Shown one piece after another: positions 1,787 through 44,053 of a stretch of 64,000 bases of DNA. The notes under the pieces were generated by a model, which saw only the letters and a list, made by a program, of their open reading frames with translations, searched no databases and was not told where the DNA came from. A program made the position numbers and the translations under genes. Numbering within the stretch: the stretch's first letter is position 1; every line of letters begins with the position of its first letter. The stretch comes from an uncultured Methanobacteriaceae archaeon (GTDB lineage: Archaea > Methanobacteriota > Methanobacteria > Methanobacteriales > Methanobacteriaceae), in the NCBI GenBank assembly GCA_963775495.1, contig CAVZIM010000009.1, positions 39,962 to 103,961 of the forward strand. The letters are read 5' to 3'.

Positions 1787-3820
1787 ATGCCTGGAATCTA
1801 CAGTACATATGTAATACTACTATTAATTTCAGCAGTTATTACATTATATTTAACATATTACAGCTGGAATAAGCGATCAAATCCTGATGCATTCTATTTT
1901 TCGTTTTTAATGCTGGCGGTTACAATATGGTCCCTTACAAGCGCCTTTGAAATGACATCACCCAGTATTTCAACTAAGATATTCTGGTCACAAATAAGTT
2001 ATCTTGGAATAGTATTTGTTGGACCGCTCTGGATCCTGTTTACACTGAGTTATACAGATTATGGAAAATGGTTAAAAAAGACATTTATTGGCTTGTTAAT
2101 GATAGTACCTATCATCATACTGATTCTTGTCTTGACAAATGGATGGCACGGACTCATATGGCCAACCATAACACCAAGCTCCAGTCAAGTAGGTTCAATT
2201 ATAATATACGGTCATGGTTTAGGATTTTATGTAAATGTAGCCTATTCATATTTCCTTTTGTCTCTAGGACTTTTATTATTGATAAGATGTTTAATTCAAA
2301 GCCCAAAGTTATACCAGAAACAAGTATTCTTGATAATTATTGCTGCTTTAATACCATACATAGCAAATATAATCTATATTGATCAATTGAGTCCTGTTCA
2401 AGGACTAGATCTAACACCATTTGCATTTACATTAACAGGAATTTTGGTTGCATTGAGTATTTTCAGGTATAAAATGCTTGACATTATCCCAGTAGCATAT
2501 AATAATCTATTCAACAAGATGAGTAGTGGTGCAATTGTTATAGATTCCTTAAAACGGATAGTTGAGATCAACCAAGCAGCTCAAAATCTTTTAAAAATTG
2601 ATAAAATATTGATAGGAACATATTTGGAAGAAAATTTACAACAACTGAATCAAATATTTCCCAAAATAAAAAATGAAACATCCACAACAAAAACAGAAAT
2701 AAAAATTACCAACCCTAGGGATATGTGGCTAGATCTGCAGATAACCCCATTACATAAACAAAATTATCAATTATTAGGATGGTTAATCACATTTAGAGAT
2801 ATTAACCCACGGAAAATAGCAGAAAGTTCTTTACAGAAATCTGAAAAGGATTATAGAGATATTGTGGATAATGCACTTGTAGGGGTATATAAAGCAGATC
2901 AAAGTGGTAATATCTTATTTGTAAATGATTCAATAGTTAAAATGTTTGGATACAATTCCAAAGAAGAAATTGAAGATCTTAATATCTCATCATTATACAA
3001 AAATCTTGATGACAGAAATATTGTACTTGAGAATTTGAATAATTATGGAAAATTAGAGGAATATGAAGTAGAAATGGTTAAAAAGAATGGTGATATCCTT
3101 AATATCCTAGCTAGTACAACCAAAAATGGTGAAACCATTTCAGGTATGATAATGGATATTACTGATAAAAGGAAAGCAGAAAACGAGATTAAAAGGTCTC
3201 TAAAGGTCAAAGATATGCTTCTAAAAGAGATTCATCACAGAGTTAAAAATAATTTAATGGTTATTTCAAGTCTTTTAAGTCTCCAATCAAGTTATATAAA
3301 AGATGAAGCATCTAAAAGTGTTTTTAGAGACAGTCAGAATCGTGCCAGATCAATGGCCCTTATACACGAACTACTTTATCAGTCGAACGATCTTAAAAGC
3401 ATAAACTTTGGAAGTTATATTAATAAATTAACCAATGAACTCTACAGCATTTATGTAACAGATTCTAACATGATAAAATTAGATATGGATATTGATGATG
3501 TAATGATTGATATTAACACTGCCATACCTCTGGGACTTATTGTTAATGAATTGGTCTCAAATTCGATGAAACATGCATTTCCAAACAATAAGGACGGAAA
3601 AATTGATATAAAACTTAAGTTGTCCGATGGTAATTATTCTATGATAATTTCAGATAATGGTGTAGGATTCCCCAAAGATTATAATATCCAAAATAGTAAT
3701 TCATTAGGTCTAAAAATTGTAAATAGCTTAACAGAACAGATTGATGGGGAAATTAAAATCGAAGGAATTAATGGTACTACATTTATAATAAATTTTAAAG
3801 AAGAAAATTATAGCAACTGA
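1787..3820 (+). CDS. Sensor histidine kinase: N-terminal 7TM domain, two PAS domains, HisKA_2 + HATPase_c
   Basis: Seven hydrophobic segments (W...Y.GIVF.GPLW, DLTPFAF); H-box [11 protein letters not shown]; N-box [11 protein letters not shown]; DNGVG G1 box; AAGGAG SD. Confidence 0.92.
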
Positions 3821-15024: not shown

Positions 15025-15787
15025 ATGAAAGCAATAAAAAAACTAGAGATTAAGAAAACACCTCAATACAAAATATTTTCGTTCGATAATAAGGTAGATG
15101 TTGTAAAGGGACAGGTTAAAGTTAAGATTCTCGATTCATTATATCTAAAGAACATGAGTTTTAATGAAATAGTGGAGTTAACTGGAAAGGCTAAACCAAC
15201 AGTATCCCAACATCTTAGAGAATTAGTCGATGAGGGGTTAATTAAATCTACTAAGGATCCTGGCGATGCTAGAAGGAAAATATTTTGCTTAAATGCAGAG
15301 TTTTTAGGGGAATTATATAGGAATAAAGAATCTAAATTTGATATAGATGAATATTTCTCAAAACTGCCACAGCTAAAAGAATCCATTTGAATTCTACAGA
15401 CTAATTTTACGTTCACTTAGAGCTGAATTTTGGAACGAAGGAATTAATATCGACCCAATACTCCACAATGCAGGAAAAAGGGTAGGCGATGTTTTTTATG
15501 AAGAGCTAAAAAATAATGATCTGAAGATACTCCTTAAAAACATTTCAAAATTTTGGGAAGACAAACAATTAGGACAGATAGAGGTTAAAAAACTGGTTCC
15601 ATTAACAATTTGTGTATATGATTGTTTTGAATGTAAAGATCTGCCTGAAATAGGTGAACCTGCTTGTTCTTTTGATTCGGGAGTTTTAGATTCAATTTTT
15701 TCCAGACATTTTAAAAGAGATATAATAACCATTGAAACCGAATGTTATGCAATGGGAAATGATTGCTGTAAATTTGTAATTGACTAA
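15025..15787 (+). pseudogene. ArsR-HTH + V4R regulator (MsvR-like), frameshifted near 15375
   Basis: The HTH frame ends at TGA 15390. The +1 frame from 15380 reads NPFEFYRLI...DCFECKDLPEIGEPACSFDSG...ECYAMGNDCCKF and ends at TAA 15787, colinear with the intact paralog at 43.3 kb. Confidence 0.85.
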
Positions 15788-15801: not shown

Positions 15802-17055
15802 TAGGGTCCTAGATTTTCAAGTTTCTGAAAGCTTTTGTAGGGCTGTTTTGGTGTTGTAACCGTTTGTTGTGATGAGTCCTGCTAAAAATACAATTAATGT
15901 GGTTGTTCTTTTGGCTGATTCTGGTGTATATTTGTGTAATCTTTTCAGACTTAGACCTGATTTGCATAATTTAAAAAAATCTTCGATTTTGCCACGGATT
16001 GGTTTGTATTTTTTCCATTTACTTATTTTTTTTAGTAATTCTGTTTTTAATCTTTTGTATAGTTTTTTTGCTTGTTTTTCTGTATTTTTATCATTAAATA
16101 TTCTCAATGGGTAGGTTAATTTGTCATTTAGCTTTTGGATCTTGAAATTTTCTTTTGGAAATATTAAAGGAACAATTTTGTATTTAGATATGCCGATTTG
16201 GTAGTTTTTGTAGCTGTAATATCCTCTGTCAAATATTATGGTGTCGTTTTTCCTGATTATTCTCCTTTTTTGCAGGTTTTCCATTATTTCTGAGAAAATT
16301 CTAGAATCGTGTGGGGCTCCAGGATGGATTATAATGGCAACAGGCATTGCTGATTTCTGTTCTATAACTATAGTTGCTTTAAATCCTATATAAAAGCCAT
16401 AGGAAGATGAATAACTCCATTTTAGATTTCGTTTTGCAAGATATTTTTTGGAACGTTTTTTCCGTTTAACATTGTAATCTAAATCCACGGGAGTTGCATC
16501 AACGATAAAGGTTAGCTTTCCACGTCTTTTTAAAGGTTTAGTATTTAATAAAATGCTGTTTACAATTTTAACGTATGTATTGGATTCAAATCGTGACAAA
16601 AATTCGGAAATTTGGATAGCATCAGGAACATTTGATATTTCAAAAAAATTTAGCAAACGTTTATCGCTTTTTAGCTCTTGAACAACAAATTCCATTGTTG
16701 TATTAAAAAATATGGCTGTAAACATAATTTTAATGGATAAAATCATCATATTTACATTTTTAATGCCTTTTGAAGCCATAATTGTTTTCGATTTTCTTGA
16801 ACCGATAATTTTAAATATTTTACTTAACAAGATATAGTTTGGGTCTTCTTTACTGTAATTTAGATGATGCTGCATATTTATCGCCAAATAAATATCTGTA
16901 AGCATTATTATTTAAATTTTACGGTTTAGAAGGCCCTTTATATTTATATAATTAAATATGAAATGTATTTTAAGAAACTAAAGATAAATACTACTTAATA
17001 AACTAAAAATACTAAAGGTTAACGCTTCAAAAAAAGAAAATAATCTAAGACCCTA
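15802..17055 (-). mobile_element. Insertion sequence (DDE, IS4/IS5-like), about 1.25 kb
   Basis: Terminal inverted repeats TAGGGTCCTAGATT (15802-15815) and TAGGGTCTTAGATT (reverse complement of 17042-17055), 13/14 match; flanking direct repeat TAATAAATA at 15793-15801 and 17056-17064. Confidence 0.9.
15817..16905 (-). CDS. DDE transposase
   Basis: IVDAT (D), FDRGY (D), RGKIEDFFK (E); single ORF inside the terminal repeats. Confidence 0.92.
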   Translation of the reverse strand: MLTDIYLAINMQHHLNYSKEDPNYILLSKIFKIIGSRKSKTIMASKGIKNVNMMILSIKIMFTAIFFNTTMEFVVQELKSDKRLLNFFEISNVPDAIQISEFLSRFESNTYVKIVNSILLNTKPLKRRGKLTFIVDATPVDLDYNVKRKKRSKKYLAKRNLKWSYSSSYGFYIGFKATIVIEQKSAMPVAIIIHPGAPHDSRIFSEIMENLQKRRIIRKNDTIIFDRGYYSYKNYQIGISKYKIVPLIFPKENFKIQKLNDKLTYPLRIFNDKNTEKQAKKLYKRLKTELLKKISKWKKYKPIRGKIEDFFKLCKSGLSLKRLHKYTPESAKRTTTLIVFLAGLITTNGYNTKTALQKLSET

Positions 17056-25217: not shown

Positions 25218-25966
25218 TGGCAATGACCATAGGAGGTTACGATCCCTCGGGTGGTGCTGGTATTTTAAGTGATATTAAAACATTCCATGCACTCGGTGTT
25301 TATGGAACCGCAGTTATCACTGTATTAACTGCCCAGAATTCTAAAAGAGTCGAAGATATTCGAACTATTTCAACTGATTTTATCCAAAAACAAATAGAAA
25401 CAATATTAGAAGATATTCCCATTAAATTTACGAAAACAGGAATGTTGTACTCTTCAGAGAATGTCAAAGTTGTATCGGAGAAAATTGTTGATCACGATCT
25501 TAATCTGGTTGTTGATCCTGTTATGGTTGCCGGATGTGGTTCCCTCCTTTCTGTTGAGGGTTACGTAGAATCGGTAAAAAAGTATCTGCTTCCAAATGCC
25601 GTACTTACAACACCGAACATTAACGAAGCTGAACAGCTTTCAGGTATTAAAATAAATTGTATCGACGATGCAGTAGATGCCGCCATTGAAATTGGTAAAA
25701 TATGTGATGTGATTGTAACAGGCGGACACCTAAATGGTGAAAATGTACTTTTTAATGGTACAATTGCAATTATCAAGGATGAAATTGTTGATAGTATTAA
25801 CACCCATGGAACTGGTTGTTCTTATTCTGCCGCAATAACAGCGGGACTTGCAAAGGGTACTGATTTATTATCATCTGTTGAAATGGCAGGAGAATTTGTT
25901 AAAGAAAGTGTTATTAATGGTGATTGGGGAACACTAAATCAATTTCATAACCCCAAATCCAAATGA
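25214..25966 (+). CDS. thiD: Hydroxymethylpyrimidine/phosphomethylpyrimidine kinase
   Basis: [42 protein letters not shown]. Confidence 0.95.
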
Positions 25967-32115: not shown

Positions 32116-32428
32116 ATACACATACCATTTTCTACTTTTTTTTGATTAAAAAATTTAATGCTAAAAATTATTTGATCAACAAGTAACAACTCCAAAAATT
32201 CCGTGAATCGTCCAGAAATAGATGTATAGGATATTACTAAATCAAACAGATAATTGATATCATGATGGAAGACTCAAAACTATAAATATCCTCTCATAGA
32301 TTTTTTTTGTGATACTCAGTTAATTTTTTATGAACAAAAATACATAATAAATCTATGATATGGTTTTGTTCAAGTTTTAAGTATAGGAATTTGTTGTTTT
32401 AATAAACTTTCCGTGGAGGTATTTGTTT

Positions 32429-32596
32429 ATGGATAGATACAGATGTGGAATATGTGGTTATGTATACAATCCTGAAAAGGGTGAATCAAGAAATAAAACA
32501 GCTCCAGGGACTGCCTTTGAGGATCTTCCTGAAAAATGGTTCTGTCCATCATGTGGCGCTGCTAAAAGACGTTTTAAAGTTACTAAAAGACCATAG
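32429..32596 (+). CDS. Rubredoxin (55 aa; not in ORF track)
   Basis: [18 protein letters not shown]...[15 protein letters not shown]; GGAGGT SD. Confidence 0.95.
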
Positions 32597-32619
32597 TAAT
32601 ATTTAAAATTTTTATTTAA

Positions 32620-32635
32620 TTTTTTTTTTTTTTTT
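32620..32635 (+). terminator. Oligo-T tract between the convergent rubredoxin and sod genes
   Basis: 16 consecutive T just after the rubredoxin stop; oligo-U tracts act as archaeal terminators. Confidence 0.5.
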
Positions 32636-32682
32636 AATTATATTTTTATTTTAAATAAAAAAAATAGAAGATAAGAACTGAA

Positions 32683-33297
32683 TTAAAGAGGAGATTTGAG
32701 CCATGTATCTGTTTTTCGGTTTACTTCATCCCAGTTAATTAGTTTCCAGAATGCTTCTATATAATCCGGTCGTTTATTCTTGTAGTCAAGATAGTATGCA
32801 TGCTCCCACATATCCAATACCATCATTATTCGAAATCCTGGTATCACATTTACATTATGTTTTTCTATTTGCATAATGAATATCCTGTCTGTTTTTCTAC
32901 ACAATGTTAATACAGCCCAACCAGATCCTTCTACACCTGCAGCAGCTTGAGTAAATTCCTTTTTAAATCTTTCAAATGTTCCAAAATCCTTTTTTATATA
33001 TTCTGCTATGGTTCCTGTTGGTTCTCCACCACATTTATCTGCAGGTCCCATATTTGTCCATAAATAGTTATGGAGTACAAATCCACCTACATTAAAACTC
33101 AATTCTTTTGCAACAGCCTTAACATCAAATTCTTCATCATTTCTTGAATCAAATTTTTTAAGTAAAGCGTTTGCTCCATCAACATATGCTTGGTGATGTT
33201 TATCATGGTGTAATTTCAATTGTTCCTCTGATATGTATGGCTCAAGATCCTTATATCCATACGGAAGATCTGGTAGTTTGTAATATTTATTATCCAT
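32683..33297 (-). CDS. sod: Fe/Mn superoxide dismutase
   Basis: [26 protein letters not shown]; start refined to ATG 33297. Confidence 0.96.
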
Positions 33298-33356
33298 TTC
33301 TTTGTTCCTCCCCAAATATGAAATTTATATTTGAATCTAATTCAAAATTTCAGGTA

Positions 33357-34043
33357 TTACCATTTATAGTAGTTTCTGTAGCAAAGCCACCAGTCAAAAC
33401 ATTTATATTTTCCTTGACGTTTGTTTATACTTTCAATATCGGAAGGAGGTGGAATTATCAGTCCTTTGCCTATAAGTTCGTTTTCAGGCCAATTTGCAGG
33501 TATTGCTACTTGTTTTTCTTCTATCTGATTGAATCCTTCTATCATTCTTAGAATTTCATCTATGTTACGTCCAAGTTCTTGTGGATAATATAATATAGCC
33601 CTTATAATTCCTCGTGGATCGATTATAAATACGGCCCTTACTGTATTGGTTGCTTTTGCCGGGTGAATTAAACCTAAACAATTTGCTACATCACCTGTAT
33701 CGGCAATTACAGGGAATTCTATATCAACACATAAATTATCTTGTATCCATTCAATCCATTTAAGATGCGAGAAAACTTGGTCAACACTTAAACCAATTAG
33801 TTCACAGTTCAGATCCTTAAATTTCTGGTATCTGTTTTGAAAAGCAACAAATTCTGTTGTACAAACCGGTGTAAAGTCAGCTGGATGACTAAAAAGAACA
33901 AACCATTTATCTTTAAAAGCTTTTGGAAGTTTCATCATTCCCTGTGTTGTTTGAACCTTCATCTTTGGGAATTCATCCCCAATTAATGGCATTCCCTTTC
34001 CATCATTTCTCATCTTCTTTGTGATGTAAACCTTTTCACCCAT
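33357..34043 (-). CDS. Peroxiredoxin (AhpC/TSA, archaeal Prx6-like)
   Basis: [36 protein letters not shown]-terminal CFDWWLC. Confidence 0.95.
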
Positions 34044-34094
34044 AGATTACCCTCCCATTTTGGAAACTATATTACACACTTTTTCTAAAAATAT

Positions 34095-34111
34095 TACATA
34101 ATAATTATGTA
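34095..34111. promoter_or_regulatory. Perfect palindrome TACATAAT-A-ATTATGTA at the peroxiredoxin promoter (Fur/PerR-box-like)
   Basis: 8-1-8 inverted repeat between a minus-strand TTTAAATA TATA (34120-34127) and the ATG (34043). Confidence 0.6.
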
Positions 34112-34231
34112 GTTATTTTTATTTAAAAATTTCGAAAAATGATATTTAGGGTTACAAATCTGTTAAAAGACTGTAATAATGGATTTCAATAAATTAAATA
34201 AAAAAAAGTAGGTAGTTAATGAAAAATTAAT

Positions 34232-34741
34232 TCATTTGTTTGTGGCGGGTGGGGTGAAAATACGCTGAGCAAGCTCATTATCCAGCATCAACATTCCGCT
34301 TAATGAACCTTTGGCCATTGTAACCTTTTTAAGCACACCACTTGATGATTCTTCTTCTTCTACTTGTTCAGCAACGTACCATTGTAAAAAGTTGTTGGTT
34401 GCATGGTCTCCGAGTGAAATTGCCAAATTTACAAGCTGATTTATTAAGCCTGTAACTTTTTGTTCATGTGAATAAACATGTTCAAAGACTGTTACTGCAG
34501 ATTCCCATTCTGTAGGTGGTGAATCTATCCTTATTAGTATTGCCCTGTCCCCTCTTTGTAATATATAATCATATATTTTCATTGCATGCATGAGTTCTTC
34601 TTGAGCTTGAACTCTCATCCAATTAGCAAATCCACTCATATCTTCCGATTCAAAATAGGATCCCATCGATAGATACAAGTATGAAGAATACAACTCCGCA
34701 TTCAACTGACTGTTTAATGCTTCAACCATTTTTTCATCCAT
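34232..34741 (-). CDS. ftn: Non-heme ferritin
   Basis: [38 protein letters not shown] ferroxidase residues. Confidence 0.95.
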
Positions 34742-34798
34742 TGTTCTTCCTCCAAAGATCTACATCTTATACGAATTAAAAAAAATAAATAGAATTAT

Positions 34799-34960
34799 TT
34801 AATCTGTTTCTTCGAATAACTCTTTTCCAACCCCACATAAAGGACAAACCCAATCATCGGGTAGATCTTCAAAGGCAGTTCCTGGAGATATCCCTGCATC
34901 GGGGTCTCCTGCTTCAGGGTCGTATATGTATCCACAAGCTGTGCATATAAATTTCTTCAT
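34799..34960 (-). CDS. Rubredoxin (53 aa; not in ORF track)
   Basis: [19 protein letters not shown]...[17 protein letters not shown]. Confidence 0.96.
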
Positions 34961-35048
34961 GTTACATCGCCTCAAAATTTTTTTTTTATTACCTTTAAGT
35001 ATTGATCTAATGAATATTAAATTTTTATTATTTTAATTTCTTTCTTAG

Positions 35049-35208
35049 CTATTTAGGAATAAATCTGTTTATCCCTGCACCACATTGAGGGCAACTCCAG
35101 TTATTTTTCAGATCTTCAAACGGTGTTCCTGGAACAATATTATTTCTAGAATCACCTACCGCAGGATCATAAATATAACCACAAACCTTGCATTTATATT
35201 TCTTCATT
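35049..35208 (-). pseudogene. Rubredoxin, frameshifted (one extra base) at codon 3
   Basis: GAGGTG SD and ATG AAG AAA ATA TAA. Removing one A gives [19 protein letters not shown]...[23 protein letters not shown]. Confidence 0.85.
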
Positions 35209-40711: not shown

Positions 40712-41352
40712 ATGCCGCTAAAATTTCGTAATTTCTCTATAAGTTCAATTTCAGGGCTTACAGCATTTATAATATTTACTGTTTTCATTTTAACATCTTT
40801 TACTTTATATCCCACACATTACAATCCATTATACGACTGGCTTAGTAATTTAGGAAATATTAATTTAAATCCAATGGGTGCTTTTTTCTTTAACTGGGGT
40901 TGTATAATCTCGGGTTTAATATTGATACCATTCTTTTTTGGATTGTATTCATGGAAACCTCAAAAAAAATTGAGCAAATCACTTCTTATATTAGGGATAA
41001 TTATTGGAATTTTTGCTTCTTTATCACTGATAATGGTAGGAGTTTATCCAGAAACTCAAGTAAATCTTCATGTTCAAGCTGCTACAGCGGTTTTTATTCG
41101 TTATTTCTAATAATTATATTAATAAACCTGGCATTATTTCAAAATCCAAAGTTTATAAGGAGCGTAGCATATTTTGGTGTTTTTGCAATTGTAGTAGATT
41201 TAATATTCCAATTTATGGTTATATCAAACAAGAATATACTCGCAGTATTAAATCCAACAACTCCTATTCCAGGTTTAGAATGGGCATGTACATTTTTATC
41301 GCTGGGATGGGTTGCACTTTTAGCAATCAACATGTTAATAAAAAAAGTATGA
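40712..41352 (+). pseudogene. DUF998-like multi-TM membrane protein, frameshifted (one T missing at 41091-41095)
   Basis: The 5' ORF (YNPLYDWLSNLG, FFNWG, VGVYPE, HVQAA) joins the 3' frame (YSLFLII...GLEWACTF) if the T5 run becomes T6, giving about 213 aa. Confidence 0.78.
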
Positions 41353-41411: not shown

Positions 41412-42716
41412 TTAACCCAACATTTTCTTTATATCTTCTTTAGGATCCCCAATAGGAGTTAAACCGTAATTTTCTACTAAAACATTTAATATATCTTCAT
41501 TAACCCATCCGGGGATAATAGGTCCTAGATACATATTTTTAATATCGAGTGCGAGTAGACTCCAGAGTATAGCAGCTGCTTTTTGTTCCATCCAGCTTAA
41601 TACAAAGGTTAATGGTAAGTCGTTGATTTCCATTCCAAATAGATCGGATAAAGCAACTACAACATCTATTCCAACTATTGCATCGTTACACTGTCCAAGA
41701 TCTATTAATCTAGGTACTCCCTCAATGTCTCCTAGATCCATATCATTGAACCTGTACTTTCCACATGCTAATGTTAGTACTATGGTATCTTCGGGTAAAT
41801 TTTTAACAAATTCTGTGTAATAGGTTGCCTGTGGTTTTGGAGAGTCACAACCTCCCACAACAAAGAAGTGTTTAATTTTTCCTGCTTCTACCAGTTCTTT
41901 AATCTTACCTGCTAGTGAAAGTATTGTTGATGCTCCGAATCCTGTTGTAAGAACAGTTTCTCGGGGTTCATCTTCTAGATCTGGAAGTGATTTTGCGGTT
42001 TTAATTACATCTGAGAAATCATAATCTTCAATCTGTTTAACTCCAGGTAGCTTTGCAACTCCAACTGTAAACATCCTTTCTTTATAATCATCATCAGGTA
42101 TGAGTACACAGTTTGATGTTCCAACAATTGCAGCAGGATACTTTGAGAAGGTTTTCTTCTGGTCAAACCATGGTCCACCTATCTGTCCAACTAGATGTTT
42201 GTACTTTCTGAGTCCAGGATATCCATGTGCAGGTAAAAGTTCTGAATGAGTATATACATTTATTCCAGTTCCTTCTGTCTGTTTTAACAATTCTTCAAGG
42301 GCCTTCATGCTGTGTCCAGTTGCAATAATACCTTTACCTTTTATTGAACCGACTTTAACTTCTGTTGGTGTTGGTTCTCCATAGGTTTCGATATGTGCTT
42401 TTTTCAACAACTGCATAGCCTTGATATTCATCATTCCAGATTCTGTTGCAAGTTTAACAAATTCTCCAGCATCGAAGTTCACATTGGTAAGAGTAGAATA
42501 GAGTCCCCTTTCTAAGAATGAATCTACTTCAGGATCTGTATATCCTAATTCTCGTGCATGGTACACGTAGGCTGATATTCCTTTCATTGAGAATAATAAG
42601 TTATCTTGAAGTCTTGCAACTGTAGCTTCTTTACCACAAACTCCTTTAACTGTACATCCAGTCTCAAATGCAGTTTGAGAACACTGGTAACAAAACATAT
42701 CTAATTTTTCGGCCAT
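41412..42716 (-). CDS. hcp: Hybrid cluster protein (hydroxylamine/NO reductase)
   Basis: MFCYQC..TA...[53 protein letters not shown]; start refined to ATG 42716. Confidence 0.95.
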
Positions 42717-42760
42717 AAATTTCTCCTCCAAAATCTTAAAGTCATTATTACTCGAAATTA

Positions 42761-42813
42761 TAATGTTCGTTTATAAACGAATGTTCTTTTATATACGAAC
42801 AAGAGTATTTATA
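42761..42813. promoter_or_regulatory. Operator/promoter cassette copy 1 (hcp side): TTCG-N8-CGAA + TTCT-N8-CGAA + TATTTATA
   Basis: TAATGTTCGTTTATAAACGAATGTTCTTTTATATACGAACAAGAGTATTTATA; 48/53 identical to 43166-43218. Confidence 0.8.
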
Positions 42814-43165
42814 TTTTACTGTTCACCACTCATATTCGTCAATTAATCGGAGCAATTGGATTCAAATTAATTAATATCTATTTTAAATTCAATACAAAAA
42901 AAATTAGGAATATACTGAGAAACAAATAAAATATGGATTGAAGTATTGTTTGTTATTGTCTAAATTATATTTGAATAAATGAAGATAGTTAAATCATTGT
43001 AATAAATTTCCAAAATTCATCAACCTATCATTCTCCAGGTCTTCGTAAGTAATTTATATTTCTCTTTCAGAATAATCACCCAACTTTCTACATGTTTATT
43101 AACAAACTAACTTCTAAATTACAATTAGATTGTATGATTCAACATATTATATATTTCAAAAATAT

Positions 43166-43218
43166 TAATGTTCGTTCAAGAACGAATGTTCTTTTATCTA
43201 CGAACATGAGTATTTATA
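43166..43218. promoter_or_regulatory. Operator/promoter cassette copy 2 (regulator side)
   Basis: TAATGTTCGTTCAAGAACGAATGTTCTTTTATCTACGAACATGAGTATTTATA; direct repeat of 42761-42813. Confidence 0.8.
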
Positions 43219-43285
43219 AGTTAAAGTCATCATAATAATTTTAGAGAAAGAGAATTGAAATAAGAAACCAAAATAAGTGATTAAA

Positions 43286-44053
43286 ATGAGTAAAAAAGAA
43301 CCTTTTAATGATATGCAGATAGAACTATTCTCCACATCAGAAGGTATTTATGCAATTAACAGCCCAGTAAGGGTAAAAATATTATCCATGTTACGAAATG
43401 GAGAACTAAATTTTGATCAACTTGTTGAAATGTCAGGAAAAGCCAAATCTACTGTATCTGTCCACCTAAAAAGGATGACAAACGAGGGAATTATTGGTTC
43501 AAAAATTGATCCACAAGATGCCCGTAAAAAAATATTTTTTATAAAATCCGAGTATCTCGGCAAATTATCCGGTAAAAAGGTTGTAACAGAAAAAATAGAA
43601 GATTATGTAACTAGCTACGTTGACAGTGCAGGAGATCCATTCGAATTTTTTAGACTCATATTTCTTACCATACGTGTTTCCCTAATAAGACAGGGAATAG
43701 ATATTGATCCAATACTATATGAAGCAGGTATAAAAGTTGGAGAAACATTATATAATAAAATCAAGGATCCAGATATAAATAAACTTGCAGAAAATATAAT
43801 AATGTTCTGGAAAACCCATAATCTAGGACAAGTAGAGATTAAAAGTTTAAAACCATTAATAATCAATGTTTCCGATTGTTTTGAATGTCAAAGCTTGCCA
43901 CCAATAGGGAGACCAGCATGTGCATTTGACTCAGGTATTCTTAAAGCTGTATTTTCAGCACATTTCCAAGAAGAACTAGCTGTAAACGAAACTAAATGTT
44001 ATGCATTAGGCGATAACTATTGCTCGTTTACCATTAAAAATAAGGACTGGTAA
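43286..44053 (+). CDS. ArsR-HTH + V4R domain regulator (MsvR-like)
   Basis: [17 protein letters not shown]; V4R Cys motifs [23 protein letters not shown]; divergent from hcp. Confidence 0.9.

Follow-up and report, generated by a model that had tools for sequence, protein, structure and literature searches.

The stretch analysed here (the window) comprises 64 kb of DNA from an uncultured Methanobacteriaceae archaeon, a Methanobacterium of peat, and carries two divergent genes: hcp, encoding a hybrid cluster protein (HCP), and msvR, encoding a transcriptional regulator. They are separated by a 569-nt intergenic region that contains two copies of a predicted operator/promoter element, here called cassettes 1 and 2, one beside each gene. 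The original prediction for this DNA had placed a direct repeat with regulator boxes between the two genes, and the boxes, their spacers and both genes were all found at the places it had given (Table 1).

Table 1. Features of the hcp-msvR locus, with positions in the window.
Feature	Position	Strand	Basis
hcp, class III hybrid cluster protein, 434 aa	41412-42716	-	Pfam Prismane, TIGR01703, 7e0l alignment
Cassette 1, hcp-proximal MsvR operator/promoter (predicted)	42755-42818	none	Repeat and motif searches
Cassette 1 box 1, TTCGTTTATAAACGAA	42766-42781		
Cassette 1 box 2, TTCTTTTATATACGAA (spacer TTTATATA at 42788-42795)	42784-42799		
Cassette 1 rightward TATTTATA	42806-42813		
Left spacer part	42819-42930	none	Alignment; colinear with the sequence right of cassette 1 in L001, L002 and L004
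Stub of deleted alpha/beta-hydrolase (Abhydrolase_3) gene	43020-43079	-	Alignment to L002/L004
Cassette 2, msvR-proximal operator/promoter (predicted)	43160-43223	+	Repeat and motif searches, cross-locus comparison
Cassette 2 box 1, TTCGTTCAAGAACGAA	43171-43186		
Cassette 2 box 2, TTCTTTTATCTACGAA	43189-43204		
msvR TATA, TATTTATA	43211-43218		
msvR, hcp-linked paralogue, 255 aa	43286-44053	+	Pfam HTH_5 and V4R, NCBIfam NF053755

The two genes and their products

The hcp gene starts with an ATG at 42716, behind a Shine-Dalgarno sequence (GGAGGAG) at 42723-42729. Its product matches the Pfam Prismane family (E = 4e-120) and TIGR01703 (644 bits, cut-off 361), and aligns in one continuous piece with residues 61-490 of the class III HCP of Methanothermobacter marburgensis (PDB 7e0l; PMC10502027), at about 80% identity over the HCP core as judged by eye. 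Class I and class II HCP structures align to it only in two pieces. The window protein thus has the short class III form, that is, the HCP fold without the ~100-residue middle segment of classes I and II, and lies close to the solved class III enzyme. The M. marburgensis protein carries a fused N-terminal rubredoxin domain, whereas the window Hcp does not, as follows from an alignment that covers residues 61-490 of 7e0l. Some related loci have a separate rubredoxin gene directly upstream or downstream of hcp, in agreement with the proposal that unfused class III HCPs have rubredoxin as their partner (PMC10502027).

The regulator combines an ArsR-type winged helix-turn-helix domain (Pfam HTH_5, residues 26-70, E = 3e-12) with a V4R domain (residues 192-251, E = 1e-19), and it matches the NCBIfam equivalog NF053755 'transcriptional factor MsvR' over model positions 1-236 of 236 with 337.4 bits (cut-off 220). 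These matches bear out the ArsR and V4R domains read earlier from the letters. Twenty homologues of 61-93% identity all share its five V4R cysteines: two in the motif C198-x2-C201-x3-P205 (CFECQSLP), followed by C212, C238 and C246. A CX2CX3P variant has been mentioned for homologues of MthMsvR, the regulator of Methanothermobacter thermautotrophicus (PMC3729527), and the +26/+8 spacing of the last three cysteines equals that of C206, C232 and C240 in MaMsvR of Methanosarcina acetivorans, an equivalence by spacing and not by alignment. As described for the family, boxes lie upstream of its own gene next to the TATA and the transcription factor B recognition element (BRE). The assignment draws on the NCBIfam model, the domains, the cysteine pattern and synteny. 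On these sequence features the protein is a full member of the MsvR family, so that the earlier label of a divergent MsvR-like protein, right as to the family, was too weak: the regulator belongs to a distinct hcp-linked clade of paralogues. Its nearest relatives come from metagenome-assembled Methanobacterium genomes from peat and bog.

A duplicated cassette of MsvR boxes

A repeat search of positions 42600-43400 returned a single direct-repeat family, formed by the two 64-nt cassettes with 86% identity and offset by 405 nt from start to start. Within them, 42761-42813 and 43166-43218 agree at 48 of 53 positions when counted by eye, which reproduces the count of the original prediction. The best ungapped self-match of the intergenic region scores 38, about 21 standard deviations above 200 dinucleotide-preserving shuffles of the same region (mean 10.6, standard deviation 1.3, maximum 16).

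Each cassette reads GTTCG-N8-CGAA-TG-TTCT-N8-CGAAC-N6-TATTTATA. The box 1 and box 2 spacers are TTTATAAA and TTTATATA in cassette 1, and TTCAAGAA and TTTATCTA in cassette 2. The boxes conform, as had been supposed, to the TTCG-N7-9-CGAA motif described upstream of all msvR genes by Isom et al. 2013 (PMC3729527). This published motif has exactly two matches in the 64 kb, one per cassette, where 0.6 are expected. Allowing one mismatch, GTTCG-N8-CGAAY recovers all four boxes and gives 11 matches in the window against 1.7 expected, a number reached in none of 100 shuffles. Each cassette is also an imperfect palindrome with two 27-nt arms that are 74-78% complementary. The proposed common orientation of the two cassettes is set by the TATTTATA tail, but the near-palindromic boxes themselves define it only weakly.

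Linkage of hcp and msvR across genomes

We scanned a genome collection by MsvR alignment and examined the best 80 of 181 matching loci (cited by L numbers), most of which come from metagenome-assembled genomes (MAGs); hcp was scored by tblastn with the window Hcp within each fetched locus. It adjoins msvR in 61 of the 80 loci, divergently in 47 and co-directionally in 14, at MsvR identities of 56-95%; practically every Methanobacterium and Methanobacteriaceae locus is among these 61. In the other 19 loci hcp was not found: 16 are of Methanoregula, Methanoculleus, Methanofollis or Methanocella type, two are truncated by the contig end (L045, L067) and one is a genuine exception (L027). The coupling of hcp to the regulator, originally proposed for this one locus, is therefore supported by synteny and motif comparison, and it takes three layouts.

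About 27 of the 47 divergent loci have a compact intergenic region of 130-260 bp with a single cassette. The ungapped consensus of 35 cassettes, tGTTCGt..A.a.aCGAATGTTct.tTaTataCGAACaa.AgtaTttatA.gTtacg, contains three strongly kept half-sites, namely an inverted repeat and a direct repeat of its right arm (GTTCG-N8-CGAATGTT-N10-CGAAC), a weaker fourth half-site, and the msvR TATA with the initiator region. The M. thermautotrophicus promoter follows the same logic, with boxes 2 and 3 inverted and box 1 a direct repeat of box 3 (PMC3729527). In the second layout (L017, L024, L046), the cassette and hcp are flipped together: the cassette lies upstream of hcp, msvR follows hcp without boxes of its own, and the former msvR-side TATA faces a small Zn-ribbon gene. 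These inverted copies are second copies alongside a divergent pair (L017/L018 on OY969779.1; L022/L046 on CP099988.1). The third layout is an operon (L040, L047-L056, L059, L064), in which box-like sequences precede (rubredoxin)-hcp-cupin-Zn-ribbon-msvR. The boxes thus remain with hcp in every layout, and this is our main argument for hcp being a real target and not a bystander.

Several genomes or MAGs hold two hcp-msvR pairs, L012/L024 and L013/L026 in addition to L017/L018 (OY969779.1) and L022/L046 (CP099988.1). The second msvR is interrupted in L024 and L046, and in L046 hcp is interrupted as well, so that the extra pair appears to be decaying there. The operon clade belongs to deeper Methanobacteriaceae; in the example L054 (2132-4720), the cupin has ~112 aa and the Zn-ribbon protein ~65 aa (CxC...CxxC...CxxC). 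A Zn-ribbon gene also stands beside hcp in L013, L017, L024, L046, L051, L058 and L061. The last of these, a MAG labelled Methanomicrobiales, contains a Methanobacterium-type pair with an 80% identical hcp, and the MsvRs of L052 and L057 (labelled Methanocellaceae) branch beside the hcp-linked clade and are without hcp; either lateral transfer or mis-binning could explain these cases. A lone class III HCP that groups with Methanobacteria has been reported in Methanomicrobia (Lemaire et al. 2023, PMC10210160).

Promoter geometry and predicted repression

The right half-site of box 2 in cassette 2, CGAAC, ends 6 nt before the msvR TATA, which agrees with the earlier placement of the regulator-side boxes upstream of that TATA. 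This is the expected place of the BRE; a bound protein would therefore cover it, as proposed for the msvR promoter of M. acetivorans (PMC3729527). On the other side, the hcp ATG of L003, L005, L014 and L026 lies 22-25 nt from box 1 behind a conserved Shine-Dalgarno sequence, so that only the box-2 spacer on the minus strand would be sensibly placed as the hcp TATA, with box 1 over the start site. In L016 and L020 the box-2 spacer is not TATA-like, and an extra box and a separate TTTAAATATT are found nearer to hcp. The window has 49 nt between the hcp ATG and box 1, and the best candidate for its hcp TATA is the box-2 spacer TTTATATA on the minus strand. With any of the candidate TATAs the boxes overlap or abut the core promoter, an arrangement that predicts repression by occlusion.

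Among Logan contigs of peat metatranscriptomes, some match parts of msvR at 99% identity or more; short pieces of both genes are represented, and no contig spans the spacer. One contig begins at 43275, within the predicted msvR leader, and would suit a start site ~25 nt downstream of the msvR TATA, although contigs of this kind neither fix start sites nor reveal regulation. Starting from the cultured-strain locus L037, a search yielded metatranscriptome runs and six runs of unstated kind, and no labelled pure-culture RNA-seq.

Taking conservation and geometry together, we consider it probable that a dedicated MsvR paralogue represses both hcp and its own gene through canonical operators set in an archaeal promoter, with the second cassette of the window arising through a gene insertion as described below. 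Each cassette would be a canonical MsvR operator within such a promoter. In the ancestral Methanobacterium, one cassette in a region of 130-200 bp between the divergent genes would have served both, with the msvR TATA following box 2 and the hcp TATA most likely formed by the A/T-rich box-2 spacer on the other strand or, in some lineages, by a TATA beside an additional box. If it acts like MthMsvR and MaMsvR, the reduced regulator would bind the boxes, block TATA-binding protein (TBP) and transcription factor B (TFB) and repress hcp and msvR; oxidation or another modification of the V4R cysteines would release it.

Origin of the second cassette

Two full cassettes far apart occur, among the examined loci, only in the window, L001, L002 and L004. 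In a quick neighbour-joining tree these four are monophyletic, and their sister group consists of the single-cassette loci L003 and L005. The cassettes of L004 flank an intact gene for a 312-aa Abhydrolase_3 esterase (minus strand, 2869-3807; HGGG and GDSSGG motifs; Pfam E = 2e-67). The same hydrolase lies frameshifted between the cassettes of L002 and is wholly lost from L001, through a larger deletion whose end points are unlike those of the window. In both L002 and L004 cassette 1 remains beside hcp even though msvR is 1.5 kb off.

The spacer of the window retains remnants of this arrangement. In its left part the beginning of the msvR leader survives as a decayed copy, TTTTACTGTTCACCA where the consensus has AGTTACGGTTATCATA, and homology to L002/L004 extends over ~43008-43165, the hydrolase upstream region included. 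The hydrolase stub keeps the first 20 codons of the gene, a GTG start at 43079 and 19 further codons (MIILKEKYKLLTKTWRMIG; MIILKEKYKL...), followed by a stop. Directly left of box 1 of cassette 2, within 43092-43170, an A/T-rich TATTATATATTT is the likely TATA of the deleted hydrolase by comparison with L002/L004, and it may still give rise to a short leftward transcript, now an orphan, that enters the stub of 20 codons.

The cassettes themselves differ in what they have kept. Of its 64 positions, cassette 1 shares 57-61 with its counterparts in L001, L002 and L004 and 56-57 with the single cassettes of L003 and L005. All four two-cassette genomes preserve the ancestral box-2 spacer TTTATATA in it, and its msvR-side tail has changed from TATAAGTTACGG to TATATTTTAC. 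In cassette 2 the msvR TATA and leader are kept, the TATTTATAAGTTA...CATAATAATT tail being in register with all single-cassette loci, and the box-2 spacer now reads TTTATCTA (window), TTTATAAA (L001, L002) or TTTATAAC (L004). The box-1 spacer varies everywhere and is TTCAAAGA in L009 and L010; that of copy 2 in the window, TTCAAGAA, looks similar to this ancestral form, copy 1 having apparently become TATA-like. The drift that the original prediction ascribed to the spacers of the regulator copy is therefore real for box 2, where the ancestral spacer is kept only beside hcp, but not for box 1, where it was copy 1 that changed.

Because the window spacer is colinear with two separate parts of L002/L004 and the L001 deletion differs, we infer a history of hydrolase insertion and decay. 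In the common ancestor of the window, L001, L002 and L004, a hydrolase gene would have been inserted between hcp and msvR, with the cassette and the first bases of the msvR leader being duplicated at the same time, so that each side kept an operator-promoter of its own. The hydrolase would then have decayed independently in several descendants, the window losing its body and being left with cassettes 405 bp apart. Meanwhile the copies would have specialised, copy 1 retaining the TATA-like spacer on the hcp side and losing the msvR leader consensus, and copy 2 retaining the msvR TATA and leader with a changed box-2 spacer. An existing 'esterase-msvR' locus such as L027 was rejected as the source of the hydrolase: the esterase there bears no relation to it (34% over 100 aa), and the L027 intergenic region is boxless.

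The duplicated cassette is thus a lineage-specific scar of gene insertion and deletion, a by-product and not the two-operator design that had been read into it, the commonest and ancestral state being one cassette for both genes. Absence of the duplication from orthologous loci had been named beforehand as an observation that would count against the original prediction. The duplicate is indeed lineage-specific, but the cassette and its linkage to hcp are not.

A second MsvR paralogue

Six loci (L032, L034, L036, L039, L042, L069) contain a second regulator gene, msvR-2, 2.7-4.3 kb downstream, whose product is 52-54% identical to the hcp-linked MsvR. In L034 (5284-7891) it is divergent from a flavodiiron FpaA-type gene (metallo-beta-lactamase and flavodoxin domains, 407 aa) followed by a rubrerythrin gene, as in the arrangement known from M. 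thermautotrophicus; the other five loci also have msvR-2 divergent from such a gene pair. The intergenic region shared by msvR-2 and fpaA has two tandem cassettes, GTTYGG-N6-CCGAATGTA-N10-CCGAAC with a TATA. Together, the rubredoxin-hcp/msvR-1 and fpaA-rubrerythrin/msvR-2 units make up a redox-stress island of ~6 kb. By neighbour-joining, the hcp-linked MsvRs form one clade, apart from the Methanomicrobiales and Methanocella MsvRs and from the fpaA-rubrerythrin-linked MsvR of L032, L034, L039 and L069, which is a separate clade. With hcp as its divergent neighbour, the window regulator is not the positional orthologue of MthMsvR, and no fpaA homologue was detected in the window at E below 1e-3. 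In the four to six genomes with both paralogues, the boxes differ at their flanks, TTCGT...ACGAATGTT...ACGAACA for hcp against TTYGG...CCGAATGTA...CCGAACT for msvR-2, a difference that hints at insulated specificities of the two regulators.

The window itself contains a frameshifted MsvR-like pseudogene (15025-15781, plus strand), 40-53% identical to the hcp-linked copy and to MsvR-2 of L034. Its helix-turn-helix part corresponds to the open reading frame (ORF) 15025-15390 and its V4R part continues in another frame to ~15781; no TTCG-N7-9-CGAA lies upstream of it. The 362-aa ORF immediately downstream (15817-16905, minus strand) is presumably a transposase gene, by inspection of its translation.

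Alternative explanations

MsvR might regulate only itself, in which case hcp would be a bystander with a promoter of its own and cassette 1 a relic left to decay after the duplication. MaMsvR offers a precedent, as it regulates itself alone at its own locus and did not bind several expected stress promoters (PMC3729527), and the rightward TATA and leader copy of cassette 1 are visibly decaying. We nevertheless regard this as unlikely: adjacency persists across the whole range of MsvR identity and all three layouts, the cassette goes with hcp and not with msvR when hcp is inverted, and cassette 1 has stayed close to its counterparts in L001, L002 and L004 while the adjacent spacer was deleted or diverged. 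In the compact loci, moreover, an ATG so near to box 1 means that the hcp promoter must overlap the boxes. Less likely still is that the two-copy layout is itself adaptive, by DNA looping between operators or, as originally proposed, a deliberately different geometry for each gene. Its attraction is that the copies diverged in a complementary manner and that duplications recur, with tandem cassettes in L030, L034 and the msvR-2/fpaA regions and an extra TTCG-N8-CGAA on the hcp side of L013, L015, L016, L018, L020 and L021. Such recurrence in other lineages suggests a promoter type prone to duplication. But the copies stand at varying distances from each other (405 nt in the window, ~330 in L001, ~1400 in L002 and L004), the intervening DNA is a dying hydrolase gene, and the sister lineages manage with one cassette. 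Finally, the near-palindromic arms of the cassettes could recall a small mobile or repetitive element, such as a miniature inverted-repeat transposable element, or a structured RNA, and a small-protein gene might also be imagined. All of these were rejected and seem hardly credible: the 64 kb hold just two copies, dozens of genomes have the orthologous promoter element once and at a fixed position, Rfam gave no match for the repeat or the 350-bp spacer at E up to 1, and the only ORFs are junk of 22-47 aa.

A further question, compatible with repression of hcp by MsvR, concerns the signal. The hcp-linked paralogue could sense reactive nitrogen species (nitric oxide (NO), nitrite-derived species or hydroxylamine), for instance by S-nitrosylation of its V4R cysteines, although we find this doubtful. 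The best-supported activities of HCP are NO and hydroxylamine reduction (PMC10210160), some of these genomes also have msvR-2 beside the O2-detoxifying fpaA-rubrerythrin genes, which points to a division of labour, and the boxes of the paralogues differ in their flanks (TTCGT...ACGAA against TTYGG...CCGAA). Sequence, however, does not discriminate between signals, and the five cysteines are all common to the general family pattern. Furthermore, hcp is co-operonic with rubredoxin and near oxidative-stress genes, methanogens are without an obvious NO source, and hcp expression in M. thermolithotrophicus was unaffected by the nitrogen source (PMC10210160). The rubredoxin and the neighbouring fpaA-rubrerythrin/msvR-2 genes appear no less consistent with a general response to oxidants or redox state than with a nitrosative one, and the label 'nitrosative' is speculative, the genomic context speaking neither for nor against it. 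Only tentatively, then, do we suggest that the MsvR of Methanobacterium has split into two insulated sensors, one fpaA-linked for O2 or reactive oxygen and the other hcp-linked for reactive nitrogen or another HCP substrate.

Several points weigh against the explanation proposed here. The hcp TATA of the window could be any of three A/T-rich stretches, namely the spacers of box 2 and box 1 and, just downstream of box 1, ATTATAAT. The RNA evidence consists of low-depth contigs that may include DNA. Repression of hcp is deduced from position and conservation, and all the mechanistic steps (binding, repression and signal) from analogy and position. MaMsvR did not bind several promoters expected to be its targets (PMC3729527), so that the motif alone is no proof. 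The comparison, too, rests mostly on MAGs, on the best 80 of 181 matches and on a quick neighbour-joining tree.

Neighbouring genes

The genes flanking the locus encode GrpB, DUF998, MsvR and a cytidylyltransferase-like protein, and no Crp/Fnr- or Rrf2-family regulator of the HcpR, NsrR or FNR type is among them, a negative that covers only this part of the genome. The DUF998 membrane-protein gene just downstream of hcp (40712-41352, plus strand) is spread over two ORFs that overlap in different frames, 40712-41110 and 40900-41352, and may have suffered a frameshift or be a pseudogene. At 6-9 kb from hcp, positions 32423-35207 hold what we take, from translations alone, to be an antioxidant cluster: presumably genes for a rubredoxin (32423-32596, plus strand) and, on the minus strand, an Fe/Mn superoxide dismutase (32683-33315), a peroxiredoxin (33357-34043), a ferritin-like protein (34232-34741) and two rubredoxins (34799-34975 and 35049-35207). 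No exact MsvR box was found in 32423-35207. One-mismatch matches outside the cassettes, at 25348, 33476 and 58183, are all isolated, and the second lies within the peroxiredoxin-like ORF. Further MsvR targets in the window were therefore rejected, these matches being taken as chance.

Comparison with known systems

The MsvR family has been shown to bind operators overlapping the BRE and TATA, with redox-dependent binding via the V4R cysteines and autoregulation (PMC3729527, PMC7278568). The closest precedent is the msvR/fpaA-rlp-rub locus of M. thermautotrophicus, as far as Karr 2010 is relayed by PMC3729527. In that account, an ArsR-type helix-turn-helix and V4R regulator with CX2CX3(H/P) and three conserved V4R cysteines is likewise divergent from a redox-stress gene, and a TTCG...CGAA inverted repeat with a direct-repeat half-site covers the TATA/BRE and start-site region of two overlapping promoters. 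The target there is fpaA-rlp-rub and here hcp; the regulator here is the other paralogue, 52-54% identical to the fpaA-linked MsvR-2 of some Methanobacterium. The boxes are spelt TTCGTA-N4-TACGAA there, whereas here the core is TTCG-N8-CGAA and the operator is duplicated in the window lineage. MaMsvR (MA1458) of M. acetivorans binds the same motif, at boxes just upstream of the msvR TATA where it would cover the BRE, a geometry like that of cassette 2, and has the same V4R cysteine spacing. It differs in having no divergent target gene, seven extra cysteines and no CX2C (PMC3729527).

The bacterial hcp regulators HcpR (Crp/Fnr family), NsrR, FNR and OxyR are similar in being dedicated stress-responsive factors next to, or controlling, hcp (PMC1274295, PMC12750200). 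They belong to families unrelated to MsvR, with haem or Fe-S sensing in place of V4R cysteine thiols and sigma factor in place of TBP/TFB, and HcpR activates, whereas MsvR is expected to repress. The library searched held no paper joining MsvR with hcp, prismane, hybrid cluster protein or hydroxylamine reductase, a passing mention in Karr 2010 being possible, and this agrees with the initial impression that V4R-thiol control of hcp had not been described. The MsvR family, its motif, autoregulation and the redox switch are already known; the hcp-MsvR pairing and the paralogue are apparently new.

Implications

Class I and III hcp genes have been described as usually isolated, with no informative neighbours or synteny, and methanogens as having no obvious NO source, the role of HCP in them being unresolved (Lemaire et al. 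2023, PMC10210160). As judged from gene order, our comparison shows the opposite of isolation in one genus: hcp of Methanobacterium is tightly coupled to a dedicated MsvR paralogue, and often also to rubredoxin, a small cupin and a Zn-ribbon protein. This genus-wide coupling, and not the duplication, is the main point of the analysis. It provides a candidate regulator and operator for hcp in Archaea, points to rubredoxin as a candidate electron donor to HCP, and extends the predicted MsvR regulon beyond fpaA-rlp-rub. The window lineage adds a small, clean case in which, following a gene insertion, a bidirectional archaeal promoter was duplicated and its copies were shared out between two genes. 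If the two paralogues did prove to be insulated sensors, the hcp-linked MsvR would be the first archaeal transcription factor known to control hcp, and its inducer would indicate the purpose of HCP in methanogens.

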